The notes under the pieces are model-generated. The model searched no databases and was not told the DNA's origin. It was given only the letters and a program-made list of their open reading frames with translations. 64,000 nt of DNA from an uncultured bacterium (GTDB lineage: Bacteria > Bacillota_I > Bacilli_A > RFN20 > CAG-826), in NCBI GenBank assembly GCA_949297445.1, contig CASFSS010000007.1:8042-72041 (forward strand), read 5' to 3'. The position numbers and the translations under genes were made by a program. Below, piece by piece: positions 1,591 to 51,952 of the stretch. Numbering within the stretch: the stretch's first letter is position 1; every line of letters begins with the position of its first letter.

Positions 1591-1860
1591 AAGTAACTTG
1601 TTTGCCTCCTTTTGTAAACATAGCGGTATTATTTTATTACTTAATAAATAGTAATACAACAAAGAATTTATCTTTTTGATTAATCGGAATTAACATTTGC
1701 CGCAAGATAACGGAAATGTCCTAAATAAATTAAATTTATTTTGCGGATAAGTCAAGAAGTTATCGATTTTGTTATAATGTTTAACATTCATGTTTTTTAT
1801 CGTTATATTTGCTATGTGATTTTTTTTGGCATAAAATACATTCGATTTAAGAGGAAAAAT

Positions 1861-2703
1861 ATGAGCACCATAGTTATTAAAAATCTACATGTAAATGTTG
1901 GCGATAAAGAAATATTAAAAGGTCTAAATTTGGAAATTAAAGAAGGTGAGACATTGGCTCTTCTTGGTCCAAATGGCAATGGCAAATCAACTCTTCTTCA
2001 TACAATAATGGGAAACCCTCGTTATAAAGTGTTAGAGGGAGAGATTTTGCTCGATGGACAAGATATTTTGCACCTGGCAATTGACGAAAGATCTCGGCTC
2101 GGAATTTTTTTAGCAATGCAAAATCCTAGCGAGGTTACCGGCGTTAATAATGCAGATTTTTTAAAGGCTGCAATTAACGCTCATCGAACTAGTTCAATCC
2201 GCTTAGGCGAATTTTACAAAAAGTTGGATGAAGCATATAAAACGATGCATATTCCGTTTGAATTTTCATCGCGCAACTTGAATGAAGGTTTTTCTGGTGG
2301 GGAGAAGAAAAAGAATGAAATTCTTCAAATGCTTTTGCTCGATCCAAAATTTACTTTGCTCGACGAAATTGACTCGGGGCTTGATGTCGATGCAATAAAT
2401 ATTGTTGCTAATGTAATTAAAAGTAGACAAGATGCTGGCAAAGGTTTCTTGGTTATATCTCATTATGCTAGACTTTATGATTTGATTAATGTCGATCGAG
2501 TTGCGGTGATTATAGATGGGAAAATAGTTGCTCATGGTGGCCGTGAATTAATTAAGAAAATTGATCAAGAAGGTTATGAATGGCTAGAAAAAGAATCTGG
2601 CGTACGTATTTTTAAAGAGACTTCTGCCAATGATAATTTATCTATTGGTGTTTGTTTGACGAAAGAAATTATTAAAAACAATGAAAAAAATAATAATAAA
2701 TGA
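1861..2703 (+). CDS. sufC: Fe-S cluster assembly ATPase SufC
   Basis: Walker A LLGPNGNGKSTLL and ABC signature LSGGEKKKNEIL. Start moved to ATG 1861 (MSTIVIKNL...), preceded by AGAGGAAAA. The track's extension from 1741 is a hydrophobic non-coding artefact. Confidence 0.93.
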   Translation: MSTIVIKNLHVNVGDKEILKGLNLEIKEGETLALLGPNGNGKSTLLHTIMGNPRYKVLEGEILLDGQDILHLAIDERSRLGIFLAMQNPSEVTGVNNADFLKAAINAHRTSSIRLGEFYKKLDEAYKTMHIPFEFSSRNLNEGFSGGEKKKNEILQMLLLDPKFTLLDEIDSGLDVDAINIVANVIKSRQDAGKGFLVISHYARLYDLINVDRVAVIIDGKIVAHGGRELIKKIDQEGYEWLEKESGVRIFKETSANDNLSIGVCLTKEIIKNNEKNNNK

Positions 2704-3382
2704 AGGAGAAAATAAAACGCTGACAATTTGTTCATCACAAGATGTTTTTTTAGAGTTGAATCCTTCGGCCACTTTATTATTAAAATTGTTCGTAACTGAC
2801 CATAATTTTTTGATGAAATTTCGTGCAGATTTGAAAGAAAACGCTCATTTAGCAGTTATTTTTGCTGATTTTTCTAGCGGGAAAGTTGAAATAAATGGAT
2901 TGACAAAACTTGTCGGAAACGGCGCTAAAGTTGAATGGAAATTAGCGTCCTTATCAAAGGATGTAGATAGAAAAAATATTGATGTTTCCTTTATCCATGA
3001 GGCGCCTAATACATATGCAACAATGGAAAATTATGGCATCGCTAAAGACGAGTCAAAGCTGATTTTTACCGGTGTTAATCACGTTATGAATGGTATGTCT
3101 AAATCGTTTTCTAGCCAGCAAGCTAAAATAATTGTTTTTGACAAAAATAGTCATGGAGAAGCATCACCAATATTAAAAATCGACGAAAATGATATTGTCG
3201 CTAAACATTCGGCAATTGTCGGTCAATTAAATGATGACCATATTTATTATTTAATGACGCGCGGCCTGACTATCGATGATGCTAAGAAATTAATTACATT
3301 AGGTTATTTAATGCCAATTTGTAATTATTTTGACGACAACAATAAGACACAAATGGAAAAAATAGTTATGGAGAGAATGTAG
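2681..3382 (+). CDS. sufD: Fe-S assembly protein SufD, short form (about 233 aa, C-terminal domain only)
   Basis: Sits between sufC and sufS. C-terminal SufB/SufD-family motifs (...LMTRGLTIDDAKKLITLGYL). Overlaps sufC by 23 nt. Roughly half the usual SufD length. Confidence 0.7.
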   Translation: MKKIIINEGENKTLTICSSQDVFLELNPSATLLLKLFVTDHNFLMKFRADLKENAHLAVIFADFSSGKVEINGLTKLVGNGAKVEWKLASLSKDVDRKNIDVSFIHEAPNTYATMENYGIAKDESKLIFTGVNHVMNGMSKSFSSQQAKIIVFDKNSHGEASPILKIDENDIVAKHSAIVGQLNDDHIYYLMTRGLTIDDAKKLITLGYLMPICNYFDDNNKTQMEKIVMERM

Positions 3383-3383
3383 A

Positions 3384-4613
3384 ATGTACGATGTATACGA
3401 AATTAGAAAAGATTTCCCAATGTTAAATGGCGTAAAAATGCAAGGCAAGCCACTTGTATTTTTGGATAATGCATCAACTACATTTAAACCATATGAAGTC
3501 ATAGAAGCAATTGAACGCTATTATAAATTTGAGACTAGTAATTCTCATCGTGGTGACTATGATTTATGTTTTAATATTGATAGACAAATTGATGCTGCAC
3601 GTCATGAAATCGCAACATTTATTAATTCACACGACGATGAGATTGTTTTTACCAGTGGCTCTTCGATGTCATTAAATTTGGTTGCTTACGGTTATGCAGT
3701 TAAATACTTAAAAAGTGATGACGAGATACTTATTACACAAGCGGAACATGCTAGTAACGTTTTACCTTGGTTCAAGGTTGCTGAAATAACAGGTTGTAAA
3801 ATTTCATACATTCCTTTGACAGATGACGGACGTCTAACATTAGATAATGTTGAAAAAACCATCACACCAAAAACAAAAATTATTGCCGTTGCACATGTAA
3901 GCAATGTATTAGGTTATATTGTTGATATTAAAAATATTGCACGCATTGCGCATGCTCATAATGCTATTTTAATATGCGATGGTGCACAATCCGTCCCTCA
4001 TATGAAAATAGATGTCCAAGATCTTGACTGTGATTTTTTAGCTTTTTCAGGTCATAAAATGCTTGGACCAACCGGCATTGGCGTTCTTTATGGCAAATAT
4101 CACTTATTAGATATGATGGATCCCCTTATGAGCGGCGGCGGAATGAATGCAAAATTTGATATGTGTGGTGATGTCTCATACTTAAATCCACCAGTAAGAT
4201 TTGAAGCTGGAACTATCAATATTGAAGGCATCGTTGGTCTAGCAGCAGCAGTTAGATATTTAAAGAAAATTGGCATGGAAAATATTCAAATGCACGAAAA
4301 CGAAATTCGAAAATATTTGATTGCTAGACTTAGAGATGTTGCTAATATAAAAATATACAATGAAAATGCCGAAGGTGGAATCGTTACCTTCAATATTAAA
4401 GGCGTTTTTGCTCAAGATGAAGCAACCTATTTGAATTCGCGCGGAATCGCCATTCGTTCAGGCCAACATTGCGCTAAGATTTTAATTGATTTTCTTGGTG
4501 AAGTCGCAACTTGTCGCGCTTCAATTTATTTATACACAACAAAAGAAGATTGTGATGCTTTAGTAGATGCTTTAAAAAGCGGAGGAGATTTTTTAGATGC
4601 CTATTTCTCTTAG
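3384..4613 (+). CDS. sufS: Cysteine desulfurase SufS (class II aminotransferase V)
   Basis: PLP-lysine region FSGHKMLGPTGIGVLYGK and active-site loop RSGQHCA; operon position. Confidence 0.93.
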   Translation: MYDVYEIRKDFPMLNGVKMQGKPLVFLDNASTTFKPYEVIEAIERYYKFETSNSHRGDYDLCFNIDRQIDAARHEIATFINSHDDEIVFTSGSSMSLNLVAYGYAVKYLKSDDEILITQAEHASNVLPWFKVAEITGCKISYIPLTDDGRLTLDNVEKTITPKTKIIAVAHVSNVLGYIVDIKNIARIAHAHNAILICDGAQSVPHMKIDVQDLDCDFLAFSGHKMLGPTGIGVLYGKYHLLDMMDPLMSGGGMNAKFDMCGDVSYLNPPVRFEAGTINIEGIVGLAAAVRYLKKIGMENIQMHENEIRKYLIARLRDVANIKIYNENAEGGIVTFNIKGVFAQDEATYLNSRGIAIRSGQHCAKILIDFLGEVATCRASIYLYTTKEDCDALVDALKSGGDFLDAYFS

Positions 4614-5058
4614 TCCTTTACAAATGCGTGAAATTATAATGGATCATTATGATCATCCATTGCACAAAAAAAGACCTGATAATCTCGACGGATATTTGAC
4701 TGTTCATTCAAACTCAGTTAATTGTATCGATGATATCGATGTATTTTTGCTTGTAGATGATGGAGTTGTTACTGATTGTGCCTTTGACGGAATTGCCTGT
4801 GCTATCTCAACTGCGAGTACCGATATAATGTGCGATTTAGTTATTGACAAAAAAATCGATGAAGCAAAACGCATAATTGAGCAGTTTTTCAATATGATTT
4901 ATGAAAAACAATATGATGATACCCTTTTAGATGAGGCAATCGCTTTTCAAAATACATACAAACAAGCCGCACGTATAAAATGTGCAACAATCGGTTGGAA
5001 TGCTTTAAGCGATCTATTTAAGATGTTTGAAGAGGTAGACAATGATAAAGAAAGATGA
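4597..5058 (+). CDS. sufU: Fe-S scaffold / sulfur acceptor SufU (NifU-like N-terminal domain)
   Basis: N-terminal ...[14 protein letters not shown]... aligns with B. subtilis SufU VIMDHYKNPRN. Conserved Cys residues ([16 protein letters not shown]). Overlaps the sufS stop. Confidence 0.85.
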
Positions 5059-6439
5059 TTTCACCGAAAAATATAAATATGGTTTCAAAGACGAATATCG
5101 TGATGTTATAACAACTGGTATTGGTTTAAACGAAGATGTTGTGCGCGAGATTTCAGCTCTAAAAAAAGAACCAGATTGGATGTTACAATTTCGATTAAAA
5201 GCTTTAAAAGCTTTTTTAGAAATGGCAATGCCGAATTTTGGTCCTGATTTATCCTTTATAGATTTCCAAAGTTATACATATTTTACTAGACCATCGGAAA
5301 GAGTTGCCTCTAGCTGGGAAGATGTTCCAGAAACAATTAAAAAAACTTTTGAAAAAATCGGTATCCCAGAGGCCGAGCAAAAGTTTTTAAGTGGCGTAAC
5401 AACACAATATGAATCGGAAGCTGTTTATCATAATATGCTCAAAGAAGTAGAAGAAAAAGGTGTTATTTTTCTTTCAACCGATCAAGCTGTCCAAATGTGT
5501 CCAGATTTAGTAAAAAAATATTTTAATACCGTCGTTCCCTATCGAGATAATAAATTTGCGGCACTTAACGGGGCAGTTTGGTCAGGCGGATCTTTTATTT
5601 ATGTTCCTAAGGGTGTAAAACTTGAAAAACCACTCCAATCTTATTTTCGAATCAATAACGAAAAAACTGGTCAGTTTGAACGAACATTGATTATTGTCGA
5701 TGAAGGTGCTTCTGTTCATTATGTTGAAGGCTGTACTGCTCCAATTTATTCAAAGGAATCGCTTCATGCTGCCATCGTTGAAATAATTGTTCATAAAAAT
5801 GCAACCTGCAGGTATTCGACAGTTCAAAATTGGTCCAATAATATTTTAAATTTAGTCACCAAAAGAGCACTCGTTCATAAGAACGGACAAATGGATTGGA
5901 TTGATGGCAATATTGGCAGTCAATTAAATATGAAATATCCTGCTTGTATTCTTGCCGGCGAAGGCGCTAGAGGCAATTGCATCTCTATAGCAGTAGCTAG
6001 TAGCGGACAGTATCAAGACGCTGGTGCCAGAATGATTCATTTAGCAAAAAACACATCATCTACGATTATTTCTAAGTCGATATGTCATAGTGGCGGTTAT
6101 GTAAATTTTCGCGGAACTGTTCGCCACACTAAAAACGCTACTAATTCACGGTCACACATTGAATGTGATACTTTAATATTGGACAATATATCTAAGTCCG
6201 ATACTATGCCTCATAACATTGTGATGAACGATTCATCTTTCATTGAGCATGAAGCGACAGTTAGCAAAATTAATGAAGATGAATTGTTTTATCTAATGAG
6301 CAGAGGAATTTCAAAAGCCGATGCAACTCAAATGATTATTATGGGATTCATTGAACCTTTTTCAAAGGAGTTGCCGATGGAATATGCCGTCGAGTTAAAT
6401 CAATTAATTCGATTAGATATGGAAGGAAGTATCGGTTAA
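5042..6439 (+). CDS. sufB: Fe-S cluster assembly protein SufB
   Basis: 465 aa of the SufB/SufD family; last gene of the sufCDSUB order typical of Firmicutes. Confidence 0.93.
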
Positions 6440-9029: not shown

Positions 9030-9062
9030 TCTCTTTATTAATAAAATAACGCGAGTATAATA
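9030..9062 (+). promoter_or_regulatory. Putative sigma-A promoter for the riboswitch-ribU transcript
   Basis: TATAAT around 9056-9061 with a weak TTTATT-like -35 about 17 nt upstream. Coordinates approximate. Confidence 0.3.
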
Positions 9063-9065
9063 AAT

Positions 9066-9213
9066 TTTGTTTCAGGGCAGGGCGCAATTCCCAATCGGTG
9101 GTAAACCCCACGAACCTTATATGGTAGATTTGGTGCAATTCCAAAGGCGACAGTTATAGTCTGGATGAAAGAAACATTTATTTGTTACATATGCCCTGAT
9201 GAGGGCTTTTTTT
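9066..9213 (+). promoter_or_regulatory. FMN riboswitch (RFN element) with a downstream hairpin that acts as terminator and/or SD-sequestor
   Basis: GGGCAGGGCGCAATTCCCAATCGGTGGTAAACCCCACGAACC...GGTGCAATTCCAAAGGCGACAGTTATAGTCTGGATGAAAGAAA matches the RFN consensus (GGGTGAAATTCCC...ACCGGCGGTA...GGTGCAATTCC...CGACAGT.AAAGTCTGGATG.GAGA). Hairpin gccct-gatg-agggc at 9193-9206 is followed by T7. The GAGGG in its 3' arm is the only SD-like sequence before ATG 9214. Confidence 0.85.
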
Positions 9214-9924
9214 ATGAATATCTTAAGTGCTGTGTGTTCAATTATCTTAATTATTCTTTGGATGATGGCTTTTGTGTATGTTCTTTTTAAAGAATTAGGG
9301 CGTAAACAATCGTATCGTCCATCGGTCAAATTTATTGTGCGAGTTGCTATTTTTGGTGCTTTATCAACCATTTTATATACCGTGCCCGGTTTAAAATTTT
9401 CTGTTCCTTTTCTCCCCTCATTTCTCGAGTTTCATTTTGATGAAATCCCAATTCTGATTGCAAGTTTTGCCTATGGACCATTGACTGGCGTTGCAATTAT
9501 TTTTATTAAAACACTTATAAAATTACCAATGACTTCAACGTTAGGAGTTGGTGAATGCGCTGACTTTCTTTATAGTCTCGTCTTTATTTTGCCAGCCGCA
9601 CTAATTTATAAAAAACATCGAAAGTTTTCTGGCACAATTATTGGGCTTTCTGTTGGCACTATCACTCAGTTATTAGTTTCAATGTTCTTTACCGTATATG
9701 TCATGGTTCCCTTTTACATGTACGTAATGGGTTTTTCTAGGGAAGCGTTGCTCTCTATGTGTTCAATGGCTAATCCGGCAATTACAAATCTTGAAATGGA
9801 ATTAGGCCTTTACGGCATATTACCCTTTAATGCCATAAAAGATGCAATCGTTATTTTTGTTACATTAATTGTTTATAAATCTCTGCGACGTTTTATTGAG
9901 AATCTTGATATTGCTAAAAACTAA
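9214..9924 (+). CDS. ribU: ECF-transporter S component, predicted riboflavin transporter RibU
   Basis: Multi-TM protein of the ECF S-component type, immediately downstream of the FMN riboswitch. Start moved to ATG 9214 (MNILSAV...) because the track start at 9199 lies inside the riboswitch hairpin. Confidence 0.75.
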   Translation: MNILSAVCSIILIILWMMAFVYVLFKELGRKQSYRPSVKFIVRVAIFGALSTILYTVPGLKFSVPFLPSFLEFHFDEIPILIASFAYGPLTGVAIIFIKTLIKLPMTSTLGVGECADFLYSLVFILPAALIYKKHRKFSGTIIGLSVGTITQLLVSMFFTVYVMVPFYMYVMGFSREALLSMCSMANPAITNLEMELGLYGILPFNAIKDAIVIFVTLIVYKSLRRFIENLDIAKN

Positions 9925-10007
9925 TTTTATATTATAAATAATATAATATTTCAGTAAATTTTTATTTATAATAAAAATATTTACTTTCATATAAAATAAT
10001 AAATTAG

Positions 10008-11303
10008 ATGATTGCCAAAGCTCGGAAACTTCAATTGCCTAAAATTTTCACCGAGGAGCTTCCAACTCTTCGTTTTGTTGACCCCGATTTTGTCTATATC
10101 GCAACGAATAATGCACGCTGTAAAACGGCAGATTTATGCATCAAAGAAGGTGACTATTTAAAGATTGGTCAAATAATTGGCATGCGACATGGTGGCTTTT
10201 TTGAGCAACCAATTCATTCGACTGTTAGCGGTACATTTGTTGGTCTAGAAAAACATTATCATCGTAATGGAAAGATGGTTGATTTTATAAAGATTCAAAA
10301 CGATAAAAAAGATGTTTTTGATGAATCGCTATTTACTCGTTCGGACGAAGAAATTTTTAAAATGACTAAAGATGAAATTACCAAGGTGGTAAAAGATACT
10401 GCGCTGGTTGGTTTAGGTGGTTCATCTTTCCCAACTTATATTAAGTTTCAAACTGATTTACCAATTCATACGATTTTAATTAATGGTATTGAATGTGAGC
10501 CTTTATTGACTTCCGATTATCGCATTATGATGGAATACCCAGACCGTATCATGAAAGGTATTTCATATGTCATGCACGCTTTTAATGCAAAAAAAGCCAT
10601 TATTTGTTTTAAGAAAAAGCACAAAGATTTAAAACTTTTATACAAAGAGATAATTCGACGATACCCAGATATTGATGTGTCAATTGGCTTAATGGATGAC
10701 TTTTATCCGCAAGGCTGGGAAATTGCCATGATTAAAAAGGCCTTGCATATCGATGTTAAATCTGGTGAATTACCGAGTAAATATGGTGTCATGAATTTCA
10801 ATGTTTCAACTATTGTTGGTCTATATAAAGCTTTGAAGTATAATATGCCAGTTGTTAAAAGGAATATCACCATCACCGGCAACGGAATCAAATATCCACA
10901 AAATTTGCGAGTGCGTGTTGGAACAAGTATTCGTGAGCTTATTAATCTATGTGGTGGATATGTCGATGATGGACCATTTGTGTTTATTGTTGGTGGGCCA
11001 ATGATGGGAGCCTCTTTAGATTGTGATGATGTCATTATTACAAAAACGGTGACATCGATCATCGTCTTGAAGAAAATTGACTTTCAAGAAAATCCATGTA
11101 TTCGATGCGGAAGCTGTGGCTATTCATGCCCCACTAAATTGATGCCTTGGGCAATAATGAATGCTGTTAAATCATTAAATAAAGAGCGATTGAAAGCGTT
11201 GCATCCGGAACGCTGTATTGAGTGCGGATTATGTGCATATGCATGTACGAGCAAAATAAATGTAACTGACTACATTAGAAGGGCAAAGTTGTTGGCTAAA
11301 TAA
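10008..11303 (+). CDS. rnfC: Rnf electron-transport complex subunit C
   Basis: NADH/FMN-binding segment GLGGSSFPTYIKF and two ferredoxin-type motifs CIRCGSCGYSCP and CIECGLCAYACTS. Confidence 0.92.
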   Translation: MIAKARKLQLPKIFTEELPTLRFVDPDFVYIATNNARCKTADLCIKEGDYLKIGQIIGMRHGGFFEQPIHSTVSGTFVGLEKHYHRNGKMVDFIKIQNDKKDVFDESLFTRSDEEIFKMTKDEITKVVKDTALVGLGGSSFPTYIKFQTDLPIHTILINGIECEPLLTSDYRIMMEYPDRIMKGISYVMHAFNAKKAIICFKKKHKDLKLLYKEIIRRYPDIDVSIGLMDDFYPQGWEIAMIKKALHIDVKSGELPSKYGVMNFNVSTIVGLYKALKYNMPVVKRNITITGNGIKYPQNLRVRVGTSIRELINLCGGYVDDGPFVFIVGGPMMGASLDCDDVIITKTVTSIIVLKKIDFQENPCIRCGSCGYSCPTKLMPWAIMNAVKSLNKERLKALHPERCIECGLCAYACTSKINVTDYIRRAKLLAK

Positions 11304-11305
11304 TT

Positions 11306-12430
11306 ATGGTAACTTTTGTTAAGAGTAAAGCGCCCCATATCCGAAGAAAAGATTCGGTCAACCGCATGATGCTTGATGTCATCATCGCTTTGTTGCCGGT
11401 TACTGTTTTTGCTTTTGTAATGAGCGGACTAGATGCCCTAAAAGTTGTTGGCATATCTTTAGTGACGATGGTTGCCGCTGAAGCAATTTATGTTTGGATT
11501 CGATATACGCCATATCGTGATATTAAATATAAGGCAAACAAAGAAGAATTACCGACGCTTAGAGAACGTACGCGTTTCCGCTTCAATGCCTTTAAGGAGA
11601 AAACCAAGATTGCTTTTTCCAATTATCGCCTATATAACTTATTGTCGCCAATCGTAAGCGCATTAATTTTTGCGATGTGTATGCCTGCCGCTGCGCCGTG
11701 GTGGACAGTGTTAGTTTCTTCCTTATTTGGCATTGTGGTTGCTAAACTTCTTTTTGGTGGTCTAGGTCAAAATATCTTTAACCCAGCTGCGGCCGGAAGA
11801 GTCTTTTTTGGTCTCTGCTTCGGAACGACTGTTGCAACCTATTCGAATAATTTTGTCGATGTGGTTGCTGGCGGAACTCCTTTAGGACAATTGACCGGCG
11901 ATTTGCTCAATATAAATCAATATTCCTTGTTGGATTTATTTGTTGGTTTAGTTCCTGGCGCATTAGGCGAGGTGAGTACCGTTTGTATTTTGGCCGGAGC
12001 AATCTATTTATTTGCTCGTCGAGCGGCCGATATTCGAACGACTTTATCGATGATAATAACATTTGTTATTTTAGTCTTTTTCGCCTCGATTGCTTTGGGT
12101 GCCGATAATTATTTTGAATATACAGTCTATCATCTTTTATCGGGCGGTTTATTATTTGGGGCGGTATTTATGGTTACCGATCCTGTTACAACTCCTGCGA
12201 ATAAATTTGGTAGGATTTTGTATGGCACATTGGTAGCTATTTCAACCTTTTTAATTCGCTTTTTTGGCGCTTACCCAGAAGGTGTGGCTTTCTCGATTTT
12301 AATTTGCAATATATTAGTTCCGCTATTGGATTCACCAAAGTTAGCAATGAATCGTTTTCGCTGGTATCAGCCACTTATTATTGCTGGACTTATTGGAATA
12401 TTTGTGGGGGTAGCCTTCTTGGCTTTATAA
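11306..12430 (+). CDS. rnfD: Rnf complex subunit D (NqrB family)
   Basis: Polytopic membrane protein with NPAAAGRVFF and a conserved Thr-containing flavinylation region; operon position. Confidence 0.92.
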   Translation: MVTFVKSKAPHIRRKDSVNRMMLDVIIALLPVTVFAFVMSGLDALKVVGISLVTMVAAEAIYVWIRYTPYRDIKYKANKEELPTLRERTRFRFNAFKEKTKIAFSNYRLYNLLSPIVSALIFAMCMPAAAPWWTVLVSSLFGIVVAKLLFGGLGQNIFNPAAAGRVFFGLCFGTTVATYSNNFVDVVAGGTPLGQLTGDLLNINQYSLLDLFVGLVPGALGEVSTVCILAGAIYLFARRAADIRTTLSMIITFVILVFFASIALGADNYFEYTVYHLLSGGLLFGAVFMVTDPVTTPANKFGRILYGTLVAISTFLIRFFGAYPEGVAFSILICNILVPLLDSPKLAMNRFRWYQPLIIAGLIGIFVGVAFLAL

Positions 12431-12434
12431 AGCG

Positions 12435-12956
12435 ATGAAAAACTACATAAAATTTCCCTTGGTGTTAGGCTTAATTAGTGCGTGTAGTGGTTTGCTTATT
12501 GGCGGAGTTTATATGCTAGTCAATCCAACGATTGTCAATAATCAAAATGCCACTGAATTAGCGGCTCGGCAAGAAGTTTTTGCCGAGGCGACCGCCTTTG
12601 ATAAAATTGAACGCGACTTTAGCGATTGTACTTATTTAAAAGAGGTTTATGCCGCGACAAATGAAGATGGTTTACTAGGATATTTATATCGTGGCGAGGG
12701 AGCAAATTCTTATGGAGCAATTTCTCTATATGCCGGCATTATATCAGACGAGGTTGGAACGCTTAAGACTGTGTCTTTGTTGGAAAACACCCAGTCTTAT
12801 GCTTCAATTGTGAACGATTGGGTTAATGTGACTTTTTTAGCCCCAATCGATGATACAAATTCTATCGATGTATCTTGTGGCGCGACAAGAGGTGCAACCA
12901 TCGTTAAAAATATTGTTTTAGAAGCGCAAGCAGATTATTTGAAAGGAGGTTTTTAA
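12435..12956 (+). CDS. rnfG: Rnf complex subunit G (FMN-binding, NqrC family)
   Basis: N-terminal TM anchor plus FMN-bind domain with the S-G-A-T-type flavinylation motif (SCGATRGATIV). Confidence 0.85.
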   Translation: MKNYIKFPLVLGLISACSGLLIGGVYMLVNPTIVNNQNATELAARQEVFAEATAFDKIERDFSDCTYLKEVYAATNEDGLLGYLYRGEGANSYGAISLYAGIISDEVGTLKTVSLLENTQSYASIVNDWVNVTFLAPIDDTNSIDVSCGATRGATIVKNIVLEAQADYLKGGF

Positions 12957-13676
12957 ATGGAAAAAATCAGCAAAAAAAAGTTAATTTTGAATGGTTTATT
13001 TGTTGAAAACCCCTTATTTGTTATGCTTTTAGGAACCTGTCCATCCCTAGCGACGACAACTTCTATTGAAAGTGCATTAGGAATGGGTATTCTCTTTTTG
13101 CTAGTGTTAATCTGCTCGAATGTATTAATTTCTTTATGCCGAAAAATTATTCCGGATGATATACGCATTCCATCATTTATTGTCATTATTGCCACTTTCG
13201 TCACAATTGTTAAATTATTGACGGAAGCTTTTTTGCCTGAACTATATTCGACACTTGGTGTCTTTATTTCATTGATTGTCGTCAATTGTATTGTTTTAGG
13301 AAGAGCAGAGGCGTTTGCGTCTAAAAACAATGTGGTCGACTCTCTTTTAGACGGAATCGGAATGGGATTAGGATTTACGATGGCTTTGCTAATCATTGCT
13401 TTCTTCCGCGAATTAATTGGAACAGGCGGTTTTACAATTGGCAAAGTTTTTACATTCATTCCTGAAATGGAGTGGTTGCCTTTAAAAGATTATGCAATTT
13501 CCTTTTTTGTTATGCCTGGTGGTGCCTTCTTAGTTTTAGGAATTATTTTAGCCATCATGGCCGCTTATAAAAATAGCAAAGAAGCATTCAAAAAGAGTGT
13601 TTTAAAAGCCGAAAAAGAAAAAGCAAAATTACAAGCTCAAGCGCAGAATTCACCCGATAATGGAGGTAACAAATAA
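12957..13676 (+). CDS. rnfE: Rnf complex subunit E
   Basis: NqrD/RnfE family, LLGTCPSLATTT motif, 239 aa. Confidence 0.9.
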   Translation: MEKISKKKLILNGLFVENPLFVMLLGTCPSLATTTSIESALGMGILFLLVLICSNVLISLCRKIIPDDIRIPSFIVIIATFVTIVKLLTEAFLPELYSTLGVFISLIVVNCIVLGRAEAFASKNNVVDSLLDGIGMGLGFTMALLIIAFFRELIGTGGFTIGKVFTFIPEMEWLPLKDYAISFFVMPGGAFLVLGIILAIMAAYKNSKEAFKKSVLKAEKEKAKLQAQAQNSPDNGGNK

Positions 13677-14263
13677 TGAACGAATTTGTTGTATTTGTCC
13701 TCGCTATTATTAATGGAATGTTGATTGATAATGTAATATTATCGCGCTTTTATGGCATTTGTCCTTTCCTAGGCGTTTCTAAGAAAACTTCTAGCGCCTT
13801 AGGGATGGGAGTTGCTGTTACCCTTGTCATTTTATTAGCCACTTGCATATGTTGGCCAATTTATACATATGTGTTGACTCCTGCGAGCATCACTTTTATG
13901 GACACGATTGTCTTTATTTTGGTCATTGCATCTTTGGTACAAGTTGCCGCTTTAATCATCAAAAAATATAGTCCTACTTTGTATAATGCTCTTGGTATTT
14001 ATTTACCTTTAATTACGACAAACTGTGCTGTTTTAGGTGTTGTACAAGGCAATGCCGATAGTGCATATTCATTCTTAGATTCGCTCGCAAATGCTCTAGG
14101 TACTGGAATCGGCTTTTTAATTGTCATCGTTCTATTTTCATACATTAGGACCCATCTCGATGCGATGGATATTCCTAAAGCGATGAAGGGAGTGCCTATT
14201 GCTTTAATTACCGCCTCATTGATGGCGCTTGCCTTTTTAGGCTTTTCGGGGTTAATCTCATGA
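13676..14263 (+). CDS. rnfA: Rnf complex subunit A
   Basis: NqrE/RnfA family, YGICPFLGVSKKTSSALGMG motif, 195 aa. Confidence 0.9.
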   Translation: MNEFVVFVLAIINGMLIDNVILSRFYGICPFLGVSKKTSSALGMGVAVTLVILLATCICWPIYTYVLTPASITFMDTIVFILVIASLVQVAALIIKKYSPTLYNALGIYLPLITTNCAVLGVVQGNADSAYSFLDSLANALGTGIGFLIVIVLFSYIRTHLDAMDIPKAMKGVPIALITASLMALAFLGFSGLIS

Positions 14264-14478
14264 TTATATTAATTTCTCAAGTTGATTATATTCTTATTAC
14301 GATTGCCATTGTTGTAGTCTTGATTTTTATTTTTGCCATCTCGCTATATCTTTATAAGAAAACTCCCGAACCAACTGGTGGCCGCGTCAAAAAAAGTGAA
14401 GCATGTAAAACTTGTAGCATGTCTTCTTGTTCGTTTCGTGTAGAAGAAAAAACGAAAGGAAATAATCCAGATGAATGA
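14260..14478 (+). CDS. Small membrane protein with a Cys-rich tail (CKTCSMSSC), translationally coupled between rnfA and rnfB
   Basis: 72-aa ORF with one TM helix. ATGA overlap with the rnfA stop and 8-nt overlap with the rnfB start. Could be a spurious frame; no family recognised. Confidence 0.3.
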   Translation: MIILISQVDYILITIAIVVVLIFIFAISLYLYKKTPEPTGGRVKKSEACKTCSMSSCSFRVEEKTKGNNPDE

Positions 14479-14830
14479 GGGGCAATTTATTTTATTAGAA
14501 TCAGCGGTTGACTTGACATTTCTTTGGTCATTCTTAATTTTGCTTGCTTTAGGTGCGGTGCTTGGCGTTTTAATTTTCGTGGCCGTCAAATTTTTTACCG
14601 TCAAAGAAGATCCGCGCATTGCGGATGTTGAAAAAATGCTACCGAACGCTAATTGCGGTGCGTGTGGCTATCCTGGCTGTCACGGCTTTGCCGAAGCCTT
14701 AGTAAAGGGCAAAGAAAAGAAAGTCTCGAAATGTCGCGTTGGTAAAGAAGCGACAACATATGATCCTATTATTGCTTATTTAAGAGCCCATCCAAATGAA
14801 GATGGCAGTTCAATTGAGGTAACGAAATGA
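14471..14830 (+). CDS. rnfB: RnfB-like subunit, N-terminal domain only (TM helix plus CGACGYPGC...C cluster motif; no 2x[4Fe-4S] ferredoxin domain)
   Basis: FTVKEDPRIADVEKMLPNANCGACGYPGCHGFAEALVKG...KC aligns with the E. coli RsxB N-terminus ([29 protein letters not shown]...). The protein ends at 119 aa, where canonical RnfB continues with ferredoxin domains. Confidence 0.75.
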   Translation: MNEGQFILLESAVDLTFLWSFLILLALGAVLGVLIFVAVKFFTVKEDPRIADVEKMLPNANCGACGYPGCHGFAEALVKGKEKKVSKCRVGKEATTYDPIIAYLRAHPNEDGSSIEVTK

Positions 14831-15789
14831 AAAAAGTTTTTTATGCTTTTTTATCGTTTATGTTTTTGCCAACTCTTTTTTCTTGTTCATCGGCACCACA
14901 AGGTGTCTCTAAAGAGATTTATGCCTTTTCAACTTTAATCAATATTACGGCGTACGATTGTGATGAAACATACGTCAATGCTGCCGCTCAAATATTGGAG
15001 ACATATAACAAGTTGGCGGATAATTTTTTGTCGTATAGTGGATGTATCAACGTTAACGATATAAATAATGCTCCGAAAGAAACTCCTGTTGCAATCTCCG
15101 ATGAACTATTAAATTTATTAATTTTTTCTGAAAAAATGATGGCGGCGACCGACGGTTATTTTGACCCCTATTTAGGAACTATCACCTCTTTATATAAAGA
15201 AGCAATCGAATCAGAAACTGCGCCTAATATGGAACAAATTGCCGAGCTATTAAAGAAACGTCAAAATGGCCAAGTTACAATAGATAGTGTCAATAAAACC
15301 GTTACTTTGAGCGGTGATATTTCAATTGATTTAGGGGCGATTGCCAAGGGCTACGCTTTAAATAAAGTGAAAGAATATTTTGCCGGTAATAATATAACGC
15401 ATTATATTGTTAACGGTGGACTTTCTTCTATTGTTTTAGGTGAGAAACCAAACGATGAAAATGGATATAGTGTCGGCGTTAAGGGCCTCGATGATTATGT
15501 TGTGTATTTAAAAAATGTTTCCTTAGCAACTTCCTCAATATCTGAGCAATCATTTTCTATTAACGGCGAATTATATACGCATATTATCAATCCGTTTACC
15601 GGTTCTTCAAAGCCTTTATATTCTTTAGTTTTATTAAAAGGCAACGACGCAGGAATGCTCGACGCTTTTTCGACCGCTTTTATGAATATGAGCGAAGAGA
15701 TGATTGTTACAAAAGCAGAAGAGTACGGCTTTTCATATTTAGTTAGTAAGGATGGATCAAACATATATATTCGGAGCACTGATTTATGA
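14827..15789 (+). CDS. apbE: FAD:protein FMN transferase ApbE, lipoprotein
   Basis: Signal peptide plus lipobox LFSC; conserved GAIAKGYA motif; directly after rnfB, as in many rnf operons. Confidence 0.88.
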   Translation: MKKVFYAFLSFMFLPTLFSCSSAPQGVSKEIYAFSTLINITAYDCDETYVNAAAQILETYNKLADNFLSYSGCINVNDINNAPKETPVAISDELLNLLIFSEKMMAATDGYFDPYLGTITSLYKEAIESETAPNMEQIAELLKKRQNGQVTIDSVNKTVTLSGDISIDLGAIAKGYALNKVKEYFAGNNITHYIVNGGLSSIVLGEKPNDENGYSVGVKGLDDYVVYLKNVSLATSSISEQSFSINGELYTHIINPFTGSSKPLYSLVLLKGNDAGMLDAFSTAFMNMSEEMIVTKAEEYGFSYLVSKDGSNIYIRSTDL

Positions 15790-16175
15790 AAGAGGTTTTA
15801 AAGCGAAGAAGGGTCGAAATAGCAATTATTGGCGTTTTGCTGGTTATTTTGATTGCTTTTGCCGCTTCTTTTGCTTTTTATCGGCCAACTACTAATTTGT
15901 CAGCAACGATTTATAAGCGCGATGAAATATTGCTTGAATTAGACTTAACAAAGGAAGAGGAAGAACGAACTTTTTATTTAGAAAACATTGATGGCGAGAT
16001 GCTTATTGGCGTTAAAAAGAATGCTATCGCCGTTTTAAAATGCGATTGTCCACATCAAGACTGCGTCTATCAAGGATATGTGACGACGGCTAATGTTCCA
16101 ATCATCTGTGCTCATTACGCGATAACAATAGTTTTGACCTCTAATGATAGTGAAACGGATGTGATGGTTGGATGA
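15786..16175 (+). CDS. NusG domain II (NusG_II)-containing membrane-anchored protein
   Basis: N-terminal TM, then a small beta-rich domain with CDCPHQDC and ICAHYAIT motifs. Same family as the small proteins usually paired with Gx transporters. Overlaps the apbE stop. Confidence 0.55.
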   Translation: MKEVLKRRRVEIAIIGVLLVILIAFAASFAFYRPTTNLSATIYKRDEILLELDLTKEEEERTFYLENIDGEMLIGVKKNAIAVLKCDCPHQDCVYQGYVTTANVPIICAHYAITIVLTSNDSETDVMVG

Positions 16176-16753
16176 AATATATTCGACGCATTACATTTTT
16201 ATCGACATTAATCGCCCTTTCGCTCGCCTTATCGATAATTGAATCTTTTTATTTTCCATCATTAATAATTCCTGGCATTAAATTAGGACTGGCTAACATC
16301 GTCATTTTGTTAGTACTATATTTATTTGGTTTTAAAGAGGCGATGTTCGTATCGCTTCTACGTGTTTTTATTACATCTTTATTAATTGGCAATATTTTTC
16401 AAATTGGATTTTGCATGTCGATGTTTGGAGCCATTTTCTCGCTTCTAGTTATGTTTATTTTAAAAGCTATTTTCAAAAAAATATCCGTGGTGACGGTTTC
16501 TATTTTTGGCTCGCTATTTCATATTATTGGGCAGATTGTAGTGGCAATTATTTTCCTTGAAAATTTTTATATTATTTATTACTTCCCATTAATTGCTATC
16601 ATCGCAATTGTAACCGGGCTTTGTATCGGGGTAGTTGCTAATAAAATTTTAAAGTGCAACGCTTCTATAATTTTGTCGAGTTCTTATAAGGAAGATAAAA
16701 AACCTTCCGCACAAAGGGAAGGTTTTCTAATAAATGAAACTGATAAAAATTAA
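16172..16753 (+). CDS. Gx transporter family protein (heptaprenyl diphosphate synthase component I-like, ECF-S-like membrane protein)
   Basis: About 190 aa, five or six TM helices, glycine-rich GxGxxGx-like segments; overlaps the NusG_II gene stop. Confidence 0.6.
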   Translation: MKYIRRITFLSTLIALSLALSIIESFYFPSLIIPGIKLGLANIVILLVLYLFGFKEAMFVSLLRVFITSLLIGNIFQIGFCMSMFGAIFSLLVMFILKAIFKKISVVTVSIFGSLFHIIGQIVVAIIFLENFYIIYYFPLIAIIAIVTGLCIGVVANKILKCNASIILSSSYKEDKKPSAQREGFLINETDKN

Positions 16754-16920
16754 TCTTCGACGCTGATGGCACCTACTGGGCATTCAACTTCGAGTTCATC
16801 AACTTCAGGATTGACTGCTTCGGCTTTACCATCATCATCAAATTCGAAGACATCAGGGCGGGTGCCTACGCACAAACCGCAGCCGATGCAAGTATCTTTA
16901 TCAACATGAGCTTTTGGCAT
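16750..16920 (-). CDS. Small ferredoxin (single CxxCxxC...CP iron-sulfur cluster domain, 56 aa)
   Basis: Not in the ORF track (under 60 aa). Reverse-strand translation MPKAHVDKDTCIGCGLCVGTRPDVFEFDDDGKAEAVNPEVDELEVECPVGAISVED, with GGAGG 7 nt upstream. Its stop overlaps the Gx-transporter stop convergently. Confidence 0.75.
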   Translation of the reverse strand: MPKAHVDKDTCIGCGLCVGTRPDVFEFDDDGKAEAVNPEVDELEVECPVGAISVED

Positions 16921-17095: not shown

Positions 17096-17443
17096 ATGGC
17101 AACGACGCGTGTAGAAAAATTTAAATCATATCGTGATGAAATCAAAAGAATGGACGAAAATGAAAAAACCGCCCGTTCTAAGGCTTCGCGAAAAGTGGAT
17201 TCTTTTTTCGACGAAAATGATTATAAGCGCCTACAAGAAATGGATAAATCGACTATGTCGATTTCCTACGACGAGATTATGGATGCCGCAAGCGCTTATG
17301 ATGAAGATGAAAAAAGTAATTCTTACTCTTTAAAAATGCCGACAAGTAAACGTAAAATCTTTTTCTATTTACTTTGTGGCATTTTGCTTTTAGCGCTCGC
17401 TGCTTTAATCATCTATTTCGGATTGGATATTTGGGTCTTTTAA
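17096..17443 (+). CDS. Hypothetical tail-anchored protein (charged N-terminal region, C-terminal TM helix)
   Basis: 115-aa ORF with a weak RBS and no recognisable domain. Confidence 0.4.
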   Translation: MATTRVEKFKSYRDEIKRMDENEKTARSKASRKVDSFFDENDYKRLQEMDKSTMSISYDEIMDAASAYDEDEKSNSYSLKMPTSKRKIFFYLLCGILLLALAALIIYFGLDIWVF

Positions 17444-23585: not shown

Positions 23586-23928
23586 ACTCCGGCCCAGGCG
23601 GCTGCTGGCGAGAAATCGTTAGAGGAAAGTCCATGCTCGCACAAGCTGTGATGCTTGTAGTGATTGTGCTAACGGAAAAAATAACGTTAGGTATGCGGGA
23701 GCGCATAACGGCAGGGATAGTCTAAAACTCCGGTCATGATGAAAACCTTGAAAGTGCCACAGTGACGATTTTGCTAGAAATGGCAAAGTGGAACGTTGGT
23801 AAACCCCACAAGCGAGAAACCCAAATTTGGTAGGGGAAGTCACCTATAGAAAAGAATAGATGGTGGCATGCGAATGCATAGATAAATTGTCGCCCTTTGA
23901 CAGAACATGGCTTATCGGGTCGGAACTC
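23586..23928 (+). ncRNA. rnpB: RNase P RNA, bacterial type B
   Basis: GAGGAAAGTCCATGCTCGCAC near the 5' end. ...GAAAGTGCCACAGTGACG...GGAACG.GGTAAACCCCACAAGCGAGAAACCCAAATTTGGTAGGGGAA... is near-identical to the B. subtilis rnpB core. 3' ...ACAGAACATGGCTTA.... End coordinates approximate. Confidence 0.88.
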
Positions 23929-51431: not shown

Positions 51432-51506
51432 TGGTTGGGGCGACTGGGATCGAACCAGTGAATGGTGAGTTCAGAGCCCACTGCCTTACCGCTTGGCTAC
51501 ACCCCA
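51432..51506 (-). tRNA. tRNA-Gln (anticodon CUG)
   Basis: Reverse-strand cloverleaf TGGGGTGTAGCCAAGCGGTAAGGCA-GTGGG-CTCTGAA-CTCAC-...GTCGCCCCAACCA, with anticodon loop CUCUGAA and encoded CCA. Confidence 0.75.
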
Positions 51507-51523
51507 ACGGGATAAAGCATTAG

Positions 51524-51611
51524 TGGTGCCCAAGACCGGACTTGAACCGGTATGGTATCATCTACCGCAGGATTTTAAGTCCTGTGCGTCTACCTATTTC
51601 GCCACTTGGGC
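51524..51611 (-). tRNA. tRNA-Leu (anticodon UAA), long variable arm
   Basis: GCCCAAGTGGCGAAATAGGTAGACGCACAGGACTTAAAATCCTG...GGTTCAAGTCCGGTCTTGGGCACCA. Confidence 0.85.
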
Positions 51612-51614
51612 ACC

Positions 51615-51690
51615 TGGTCTCCCGTAAACGGTTCGAACGTTCGACCCCTTGATTAAAAGTCAAGTGCTCTACCAGCTGAGCTAACGGGAG
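51615..51690 (-). tRNA. tRNA-Lys (anticodon UUU)
   Basis: CTCCCGTTAGCTCAGCTGGTAGAGCACTTGACTTTTAATCAAGGGGTCGAACGTTCGAACCGTTTACGGGAGACCA. Confidence 0.85.
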
Positions 51691-51699
51691 GTGATTGTT

Positions 51700-51775
51700 T
51701 GGTTGGGGTGACTGGGATCGAACCAGTGAGATGACAGAGTCAAAGTCTGTTGCCTTACCGCTTGGCTACACCCCA
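51700..51775 (-). tRNA. tRNA-Gln (anticodon UUG)
   Basis: TGGGGTGTAGCCAAGCGGTAAGGCAACAGACTTTGACTCTGTCATC...GTCACCCCAACCA; close to B. subtilis tRNA-Gln. Confidence 0.85.
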
Positions 51776-51778
51776 AGA

Positions 51779-51862
51779 TGGTGGAGGAAGGTGGATTTGA
51801 ACCACCGAACCCTAAGGAACTGATTTACAGTCAGCCGCGTTTGGCCGCTTCGCTATTCCTCC
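51779..51862 (-). tRNA. tRNA-Tyr (anticodon GUA), long variable arm
   Basis: GGAGGAATAGCGAAGCGGCCAAACGCGGCTGACTGTAAATCAGTTCCTTAGGGTTCGGTGGTTCAAATCCACCTTCCTCCACCA; near-identical architecture to B. subtilis tRNA-Tyr. Confidence 0.85.
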
Positions 51863-51876
51863 AGCGAACCGCGTGA

Positions 51877-51952
51877 TGGTGGATGTTGAGGGGTTTGAAC
51901 CCCCGACCTCCGCCGTGTAAAGGCGATGCTCTCCCAGCTGAGCTAAACATCC
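51877..51952 (-). tRNA. tRNA-Val (anticodon UAC)
   Basis: GGATGTTTAGCTCAGCTGGGAGAGCATCGCCTTTACACGGCGGAGGTCGGGGGTTCAAACCCCTCAACATCCACCA. Confidence 0.85.

Follow-up and report, generated by a model that had tools for sequence, protein, structure and literature searches.

A probable Rnf operon with its own flavin-maturation machinery in a Mollicutes-like lineage of Bacilli

The DNA analysed here is a stretch of 64,000 nucleotides (nt), called the window below, of contig CASFSS010000007.1 (GenBank assembly GCA_949297445.1), which comes from an uncultured bacterium placed among the Bacilli in RFN20, CAG-826. Positions 10008-16753 of the window carry the genes of an Rnf complex, followed by genes for a flavin transferase (ApbE) and for proteins of the EetA and EetB families. 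A riboswitch and a riboflavin transporter gene lie on one side of this group, and a convergent ferredoxin gene on the other. Families were assigned with Rfam, Pfam and TIGRFAM/NCBIfam models at their own cut-offs, and profiles were compared with solved structures. An earlier note, made from the letters alone, had described a riboswitch for flavin mononucleotide (FMN), an S-component gene, rnfCDGEA, a small open reading frame (ORF), rnfB, apbE, a NusG_II gene, a Gx-transporter gene and the convergent ferredoxin gene. All of them are present, near where the note had placed them and on the strands it had assigned, and its gene identities are all correct according to the family models (for rnfG, through a clade profile). 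The central genes, which include the small ORF called X below, are as follows.

10008-11303, plus strand: rnfC, 431 amino acids (aa), with a module for nicotinamide adenine dinucleotide (NAD) and FMN and two 4Fe-4S motifs (TIGR01945, 335 bits against a cut-off of 246)
11306-12430, plus strand: rnfD, 374 aa (PF03116, 291 bits), with the putative flavinylation site DVVAGGT191PL
12435-12956, plus strand: rnfG, 173 aa, divergent (clade-profile match), with the putative flavinylation site DVSCGAT151
12957-13676, plus strand: rnfE, 239 aa (TIGR01948, 232 bits against a cut-off of 213)
13676-14263, plus strand: rnfA, 195 aa (TIGR01943, 238 bits against a cut-off of 229)
14260-14478, plus strand: X, 72 aa, between rnfA and rnfB, with one transmembrane (TM) helix and a cytoplasmic C49-x2-C52-x4-C57
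14471-14830, plus strand: rnfB, a minimal form of 119 aa (PF04060 only)
14827-15789, plus strand: apbE, 320 aa, a lipoprotein transferase of FMN from flavin adenine dinucleotide (FAD) to protein, or FAD:protein FMN transferase (PF02424, 150.5 bits)
15786-16175, plus strand: eetA-family gene, NusG_II, 129 aa (PF07009, 58.9 bits against a cut-off of 29.6)
16172-16753, plus strand: eetB-family gene, "Gx transporter", 193 aa, polytopic (PF07456, 134.3 bits against a cut-off of 30)

The junctions between these genes are gaps of 2, 4 and 0 nt, in this order from rnfC onwards, and all the following ones are overlaps, of 1, 4, 8, 4, 4 and 4 nt. Because the genes from rnfC to eetB are 0-4 nt apart or overlapping, the region 10008-16753 is probably one operon, and this spacing suggests that its genes are translationally coupled. 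Within it, the terminator scan returned only weak matches, all of which lie in coding sequence, away from the gene junctions. We consider it quite likely that the locus is an Rnf operon equipped with its own flavin-maturation machinery, next to which the riboswitch-ribU pair and the ferredoxin gene stand as separate units.

The set of Rnf subunits is complete: RnfC, RnfD, RnfE and RnfA score above the Pfam/TIGRFAM cut-offs, RnfG is recognized by its clade profile and RnfB by PF04060. RnfC is composed of the Pfam domains RnfC_N, Complex1_51K, SLBB and Fer4; the first of its 4Fe-4S motifs, CIRCGSCGYSCP, begins at residue 364, and the second, CIECGLCAYAC, is found in the C-terminal sequence. The Cys motifs expected of [2Fe-2S] ligands are present in RnfE (GTC28P and NC111IVLG) as well as in RnfA (GIC29P and NC117AVLG), and a recent review describes the four half-helix Cys residues of RnfA/RnfE as binding an intramembrane [2Fe-2S] cluster (PMC12174285). 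RnfG is the least typical of these proteins. Taken alone it has no Pfam FMN_bind match, and its TIGR01947 score of 31 bits is below the cut-off. The profile of its clade nevertheless matches the solved RnfG of C. tetanomorphum (7ZC6_G, E value 4e-27) over its full length and that of A. woodii (9ERI_G, E 2e-21), which rules out that the gene encodes a protein other than RnfG. The window resembles the solved Rnf complexes (C. tetanomorphum 7ZC6, A. woodii 9ERI, A. vinelandii 8AHX) in having all six subunits and the RnfA/RnfE Cys ligands, and it also keeps the FMN/NAD module of RnfC with its two clusters, the Thr residues of RnfD and RnfG, and the TM helix and first FeS domain of RnfB.

Two subunits carry a putative site of covalent flavin attachment. 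In RnfG, CGAT is aligned to the TGAT flavinylation site of 7ZC6_G and 9ERI_G, and the longer motif DVSCGAT is conserved across the clade, with Cys at the position where Ser/Thr is usual. In RnfD, DVVAGGT191PL aligns with DGVTTATPL of 7ZC6_D and the Thr is retained. This RnfD site is even more variable in other relatives that have a short RnfB (for example SGTFL, SATAL and SPTYL). No other ORF of 80 aa or more in the 64-kb window has a flavinylation-like site. This agrees with the statement of the earlier note that these two subunits are the substrates of ApbE, a role that stays putative as deduced from the motifs.

The product of apbE unites the transferase domain with an extracytosolic lipoprotein location, since a lipobox (LFSC, residues 17-20) follows a hydrophobic N-terminus. 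Its solved relatives are the T. maritima protein 1VRM (E 2e-22) and Listeria FmnB (7ESA, E 8e-16), and transferase activity is predicted for it. In the literature on Listeria and Vibrio, ApbE moves FMN from FAD onto such Thr residues outside the cytoplasm. The EetA-family protein, encoded beside eetB, consists of an N-terminal TM helix (about residues 11-36) and an extracytosolic domain containing Cys, and it has a weak match to PDB 4ESN. EetB, whose gene overlaps eetA by 4 nt, is hydrophobic over most of its length and belongs to the PF07456 family; export of FAD is its predicted function. Both ORFs downstream of apbE thus score above the cut-offs of their models (58.9 bits for PF07009, 134.3 bits for PF07456), and the earlier note had rightly connected the NusG_II/Gx-transporter pair with the EetA/EetB families of Listeria, PF07009 proteins being labelled EetA in Data Set S1 of PMC9973259. 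In Listeria, EetB (PF07456) binds FAD, resembles the S-components of energy-coupling factor (ECF) transporters and is needed, together with the ECF-T protein FmnA, for FAD export and for flavinylation dependent on FmnB(ApbE) (PMC9973259).

On this basis, the operon would encode a ferredoxin:NAD+ Rnf ion pump and the proteins needed to mature its two outward covalent FMN sites. EetB, as an ECF-S-like FAD-binding subunit, would carry FAD to the outer side of the membrane, probably with an EcfAA'T module and the membrane-anchored EetA. From the exported FAD, the lipoprotein ApbE would transfer FMN to RnfG (Thr151) and RnfD (Thr191).

A cluster of this kind is ordinary and has been catalogued before; the core of the finding is known from the literature. 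In a survey of 31,910 genomes, eetB adjoins eetA in 3,328 and apbE in 2,169 (Rivera-Lugo et al. 2023, mBio, PMC9973259), and it is most often associated with Rnf and extracellular electron transfer (EET) systems, with 572 Clostridia genomes having Rnf (PMC9973259). The Rnf-associated apbE-eetA-eetB clusters of this survey, for which the systems were defined by Meheust et al. (2021, eLife, PMC8238504), consist of the same families placed directly after rnfB. Data Set S1 of PMC9973259 even includes a genome of the same lineage, GCA_002395065.1 (Bacilli, RFN20, CAG-826), in which rnfD, rnfG (no Pfam match), rnfE and rnfA are followed by a 74-aa single-TM ORF, a 106-aa rnfB (FeS only), a lipoprotein ApbE assigned to the "Rnf" system, EetA and EetB. 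This layout is that of the window gene for gene, and its 74-aa ORF, left unannotated in the published table, is X-like. The window differs from the published clusters in a few respects. The paper stresses Clostridia, whereas the window comes from a Mollicutes-like lineage of Bacilli; the small ORF and the short RnfB are listed there without comment; and the lineage of the window adds the flanking riboswitch-ribU unit and the ferredoxin gene.

The conservation of this neighbourhood was followed in 93 loci (designated below by L and a number), which were gathered through homologs of RnfB and X and whose ORFs were labelled with hidden Markov models built from the proteins of the window. In non-redundant loci with a short RnfB and at least 3 kb of downstream sequence, ApbE was found in 21/27, EetA in 18/27 and EetB in 19/27, as against 2/44, 3/44 and 3/44, respectively, in loci with a long RnfB, most of which belong to other phyla. 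These counts uphold the linkage of apbE and the NusG_II/PF07456 pair with rnf that the earlier note had put forward. The order rnfCDGEA-X-B-apbE-NusG_II-PF07456 recurs in Bacilli/RFN20-like genomes, Acholeplasmataceae, Erysipelotrichaceae and other relatives. The best match of RnfB among species representatives of GTDB is 61% identical ("MAG: Bacilli bacterium"; MAG, metagenome-assembled genome), and further relatives are labelled Acholeplasmataceae, Izemoplasma, Anaeroplasmataceae, Erysipelotrichaceae and Onthovivens. The closest relatives, L087-L090, are metagenomic contigs. Taken with the G+C content and the class B RNase P RNA of the window, these labels point to a Mollicutes-like member of Bacilli.

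Two particular situations were met among these loci. One locus (L037, CAVBAX010000026.1) is binned as "Candidatus Methanomethylophilaceae archaeon" and contains a bacterial-type cluster, eetB-apbE-rnfCDGEA-X-short rnfB; it is probably a case of mis-binning and possibly one of horizontal transfer. In loci of the Acholeplasmataceae type (L004, L009-L011, L013, L016, L091 and L093), rnfD and rnfE are separated by two ORFs, first an enlarged RnfG-like one of about 320-346 aa and then one of 191-328 aa, at about 6.4-8.5 kb in the loci retrieved with 10-kb flanks and at 4.2-5.7 kb in L091 and L093. These enlarged ORFs may be related to the multi-flavinylated RnfG described by Meheust et al. 2021.

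Upstream of rnfC, the riboflavin transporter gene is preceded by the elements of a riboswitch.

9064-9180, plus strand: FMN riboswitch aptamer, RF00050 (107.4 bits against a gathering score of 66.2, E 5e-24)
9193-9213, plus strand: expression platform, a GC hairpin (GCCCTGATGAGGGC) followed by a T7 run (terminator scan and sequence)
9214-9924, plus strand: ribU, ECF riboflavin S-component, 236 aa (PF12822, 80.6 bits)

The start codon of ribU is ATG 9214, which is conserved in three related species, and not the one at 9199. The 3' arm of the platform hairpin holds the Shine-Dalgarno (SD) sequence GAGGG, 8 nt before this ATG. Even if the sequence of the stem differs, a hairpin and a T-run abutting the ribU ATG are kept in the three related species, and the aptamer upstream of ribU is conserved in L087, L089 and L090. 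The hairpin at 9193-9213 presumably acts as a terminator/SD sequestor, and the riboswitch would be an FMN OFF switch because its platform is of this type. RibU belongs to the ECF-S family, lies behind RF00050 and resembles solved RibU proteins, the best match being that of S. aureus (3P5N, E 2.5e-20), followed by that of Listeria (5KBW, E 4e-8). It has about 40 additional hydrophobic residues at its N-terminus (9214-9340) relative to S. aureus RibU, so that the alignment begins at residue 43. The unit is built like the riboswitch-ribU (ypaA) units of Firmicutes, with RF00050 and a terminator/SD-sequestering platform directly before the ECF riboflavin S-component; nothing essential is different, and the position beside rnf is specific to this lineage. 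Composed of a promoter, the FMN OFF switch and ribU, this separate upstream unit would import riboflavin when cellular FMN is low.

Downstream of eetB, the opposite strand carries the ferredoxin gene.

16750-16920, minus strand: stand-alone single-cluster ferredoxin, 56 aa (Fer4_15, Fer4_13)
16696-16729, minus strand: intrinsic terminator of the ferredoxin gene, a 13-bp stem with a T-run behind it, located within the eetB ORF at its 3' end

With this strong terminator and a promoter-like sequence (TTGTAA-17-TATAAT, 16977-16949), the ferredoxin gene would be an independent gene, and its product a plausible electron donor. A ferredoxin gene beside the rnf operon is found only in the close relatives L087-L090. 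The eetB ORF continues across the terminator hairpin up to the ferredoxin stop codon, with an overlap of 4 nt (16696-16753). In L087 and L089, EetB is 174-178 aa long and stops before the hairpin, so that the last 20 or so residues of EetB in the window may be a read-through tail.

The main alternative concerns regulation. The earlier note had suggested that flavin import, flavinylation and Rnf are co-regulated, which would make 9.0-16.8 kb a single transcript controlled by the FMN riboswitch. Indeed, all the genes are on the same strand, the AT-rich spacer between ribU and rnfC measures just 83 nt and has no terminator-like hairpin, and the adjacency of ribU and rnf is kept in three related species. 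An OFF switch, however, would silence a flavin-dependent complex exactly when flavin is plentiful, which makes FMN control of rnf improbable, and the scan located a promoter-like sequence, TTGATA-17-TATATT, at the spacer (9905-9933). The adjacency itself is of limited reach. A covariance model built from three aptamers and searched over 92 sources (1.5 Mb) matched only the window, its close relatives L087-L090 and L019, and in these sources the riboswitch-ribU unit stands directly beside rnfC in one closely related lineage only. With the RibU of the window as a phmmer query, no RibU was found beside rnf elsewhere in the first 86 loci. L019 (a "Bacillales bacterium" MAG) has an independent FMN riboswitch and RibU-like S-component gene (787-1597), located 2.6 kb upstream of rnfC and separated from it by two unrelated genes, for a peroxiredoxin and a phosphoglucomutase. 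The rnf-apbE-eetAB operon of more distant relatives has no adjoining riboswitch or ribU. As for the species that do show the adjacency, L087/L088, L089 and L090 (RnfB 86%, 73% and 99% identical to that of the window) keep the whole order gidA-gidB-riboswitch-ribU-rnf...eetB-ferredoxin-x-cmk-der. Since this general synteny is shared on both sides, with gidA-gidB on one and cmk-der on the other, these loci do not give independent support to a link between ribU and rnf. A single FMN-controlled transcript is therefore judged unlikely and the suggested co-regulation is left unsupported. The riboswitch would govern ribU only, as also indicated by the lack of a riboswitch at the rnf operon of other lineages, and rnf would be independent of it.

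The destination of the flavin offers two further alternatives. EetA, EetB and FmnB were first defined in the EET locus of Listeria monocytogenes (dmkA, eetB, fmnA, dmkB, ndh2, eetA, pplA, fmnB), with which the window shares the EetA/EetB pair and an ApbE-type transferase, FmnB in Listeria; there, too, RibU is the separate flavin importer, and it shares the ECF energising module. As ApbE enzymes can take several substrates, and as some could be encoded beyond the 64-kb window, the ApbE-EetA-EetB set might serve a Listeria-like EET chain or another extracytosolic flavoprotein, instead of Rnf or besides it. The window nevertheless contains no ORF for a PplA-like FMN_bind lipoprotein, Ndh2, DmkA/DmkB or the dedicated ECF-T protein FmnA, and no further [S/T]GA[S/T] motif occurs in its other ORFs of at least 80 aa. 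The putative targets are Rnf subunits in place of an extracellular electron shuttle protein, and the apbE-eetA-eetB trio, which overlaps rnfB, accompanies rnf in the relatives. With neither a PplA-like lipoprotein, nor another flavinylation motif, nor ECF-T/A genes in the window, the suggestion that the module moves flavin or electrons beyond Rnf finds no support here, and we regard such a destination as very improbable. Still less credible is that the PF07456 protein is component I of a heptaprenyl diphosphate synthase of quinone biosynthesis. This function is implied by the Pfam name Hpre_diP_synt_I and by the KEGG label K00805 given to homologs, but the protein is polytopic in the membrane with an ECF-S-like fold, the homolog in Listeria binds FAD and flavinylation there depends on it (PMC9973259), no prenyl-transferase or menaquinone genes lie nearby, and NCBI names the family a transporter.

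Some observations weigh against the reading of an Rnf operon with its own flavin maturation and separate flanking units. Both flavinylation motifs depart from the canonical [S/T]GA[S/T], RnfG having CGAT and RnfD AGGT, even if the target Thr is retained. Deletion of eetA in Listeria had no phenotype (PMC9973259). No ECF-T/A genes are present in the 64-kb window, and an energising module must be assumed; because of this absence, EetB would use an EcfAA'T module encoded elsewhere. Finally, the lack of a terminator in the ribU-rnfC spacer means that some transcription from the riboswitch promoter may read through into rnf.

What is less usual in this operon is RnfB. In the solved complexes, the membrane helix of RnfB is joined by a flexible domain with a single [4Fe-4S] cluster and, at the C-terminus, by a ferredoxin-docking acceptor domain of 2-7 clusters (PMC12174285). 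In the window, the acceptor domain is missing and there is the additional, subunit-like gene X. The RnfB of 119 aa has one TM helix, one [4Fe-4S] FeS domain (C62, C65, C70 and C88) and a conserved short tail. It aligns solely to residues 5-80 of RnfB in 7ZC6, 9ERI and 8AHX, and its TIGR01944 score (65.6 bits) is just under the cut-off of 68.7. Neither a Fer4 domain nor a C-terminal poly-[4Fe-4S] ferredoxin-acceptor domain was found with Pfam or in the alignment to solved RnfBs. An assembly or frameshift artefact was ruled out as the origin of this short length, because the short form has 254 homologs (92-124 aa among the 120 listed) in which all four Cys are invariant and the C-terminal tail, particular to the family, is conserved.

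X corresponds to no Pfam or NCBIfam family, and its C-terminus is placed in the cytoplasm because a basic stretch follows the TM helix. Its homologs all share P38, C49, C52 and C57; 25/29 have a fourth Cys (PKGCE motif), which the lineage of the window has lost. A profile search retrieved 119 clusters of 48-104 aa, annotated as hypothetical or mis-annotated as FliL, and the three homologs picked from this search are all located between rnfA and an rnfB of 102-105 aa. The invariant Pro and Cys across families, the number of clusters and the constant position between rnfA and a short rnfB rule out that X is a spurious ORF. X is present in 32/35 short-RnfB loci (29/32 if the loci fetched via X are excluded) and in 0/53 long-RnfB loci, counts that are not phylogenetically independent. 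Since three short-RnfB loci (L006, L029 and L034) are without it, not every short RnfB strictly depends on X. With hhalign, its helix and CxxCxxxxC were aligned to the helix and NCGACGYPGC of short RnfB (probability 88%, E 2.8e-6), a result that shared TM/Cys composition may inflate but which suggests that X is a truncated paralogue of RnfB.

A comparison with NqrM was also made. None of 29 X homologs matches PF04400 at E values up to 10, which excludes X from the NqrM family, and 9/29 match PF12669 (FeoB-associated Cys-rich membrane protein) weakly, the best E value being 0.0019. NqrM reportedly has one TM helix and four Cys. Reviews describe it as a small Fe-S maturation protein, bound to the membrane, whose gene lies next to apbE in the nqr operon of Vibrio. 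This operon, nqrABCDEF-apbE-nqrM, encodes a homologous ion pump and likewise carries its own maturation genes, ApbE and NqrM. The likeness of X to NqrM is a resemblance only: X, with its single TM helix and its three or four conserved Cys, is encoded two genes upstream of apbE, between rnfA and rnfB, whereas nqrM follows apbE. NqrF, in addition, takes the place of RnfB in Vibrio, and X and PF04400 show no detectable similarity.

It seems about as easy to believe as to doubt that Mollicutes-like Bacilli use an undescribed "minimal-input" Rnf, in which RnfB is reduced to a helix and a single-cluster shuttle domain and X is an integral seventh gene, possibly a truncated RnfB paralogue. The group comprises genomes of the RFN20 type and those of Acholeplasmataceae, Izemoplasma, Anaeroplasmataceae and Erysipelotrichaceae. 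X may be an extra Fe-S or ferredoxin-docking subunit, or else an NqrM-like factor that loads the [2Fe-2S] centre of RnfA/RnfE. Among the top-ranked matches of a non-exhaustive literature search, there was no description of the short RnfB or of X, nor of an Rnf-linked FMN riboswitch.

The surroundings of the locus can be described briefly. The G+C content of the window is 35.9%. The mnmG-rsmG genes and the rnf region are directly preceded by a suf-type Fe-S assembly cluster (1741-6439). To go by the Pfam labels on the identical layout in L089/L090, it encodes an ABC ATPase, a SufS-like aminotransferase, a NifU_N protein and a SufB/D protein; close relatives keep this order. A 115-aa protein with a TM helix at its C-terminus (17096-17443) is encoded between the ferredoxin gene and cmk. 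It has no Pfam or NCBIfam match, and it has a counterpart of equal size at the equal position in L087, L088 and L090. A class B RNase P RNA (270 bits) is located at 23590-23919 on the plus strand, and six tRNA genes are clustered at 51435-51952 on the minus strand.

The flavin module of this locus bears out the published picture and does not extend it. Rnf operons of Gram-positive-type cells often include genes for an FAD exporter (EetA/EetB) and an ApbE of their own, because RnfG and RnfD have their FMN sites on the outer side. A riboswitch-controlled RibU beside rnf fits a small-genome, probably flavin-auxotrophic organism, and no new regulatory principle is established by it. The RnfB/X variant, which is clade-specific, could be of interest to those who study Rnf. 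Current Rnf mechanisms assume a multi-cluster, ferredoxin-docking acceptor domain, and a natural complex devoid of that domain would define a minimal electron-input module. This variant might expose a new Rnf subunit or the first Rnf-specific Fe-S maturation factor.

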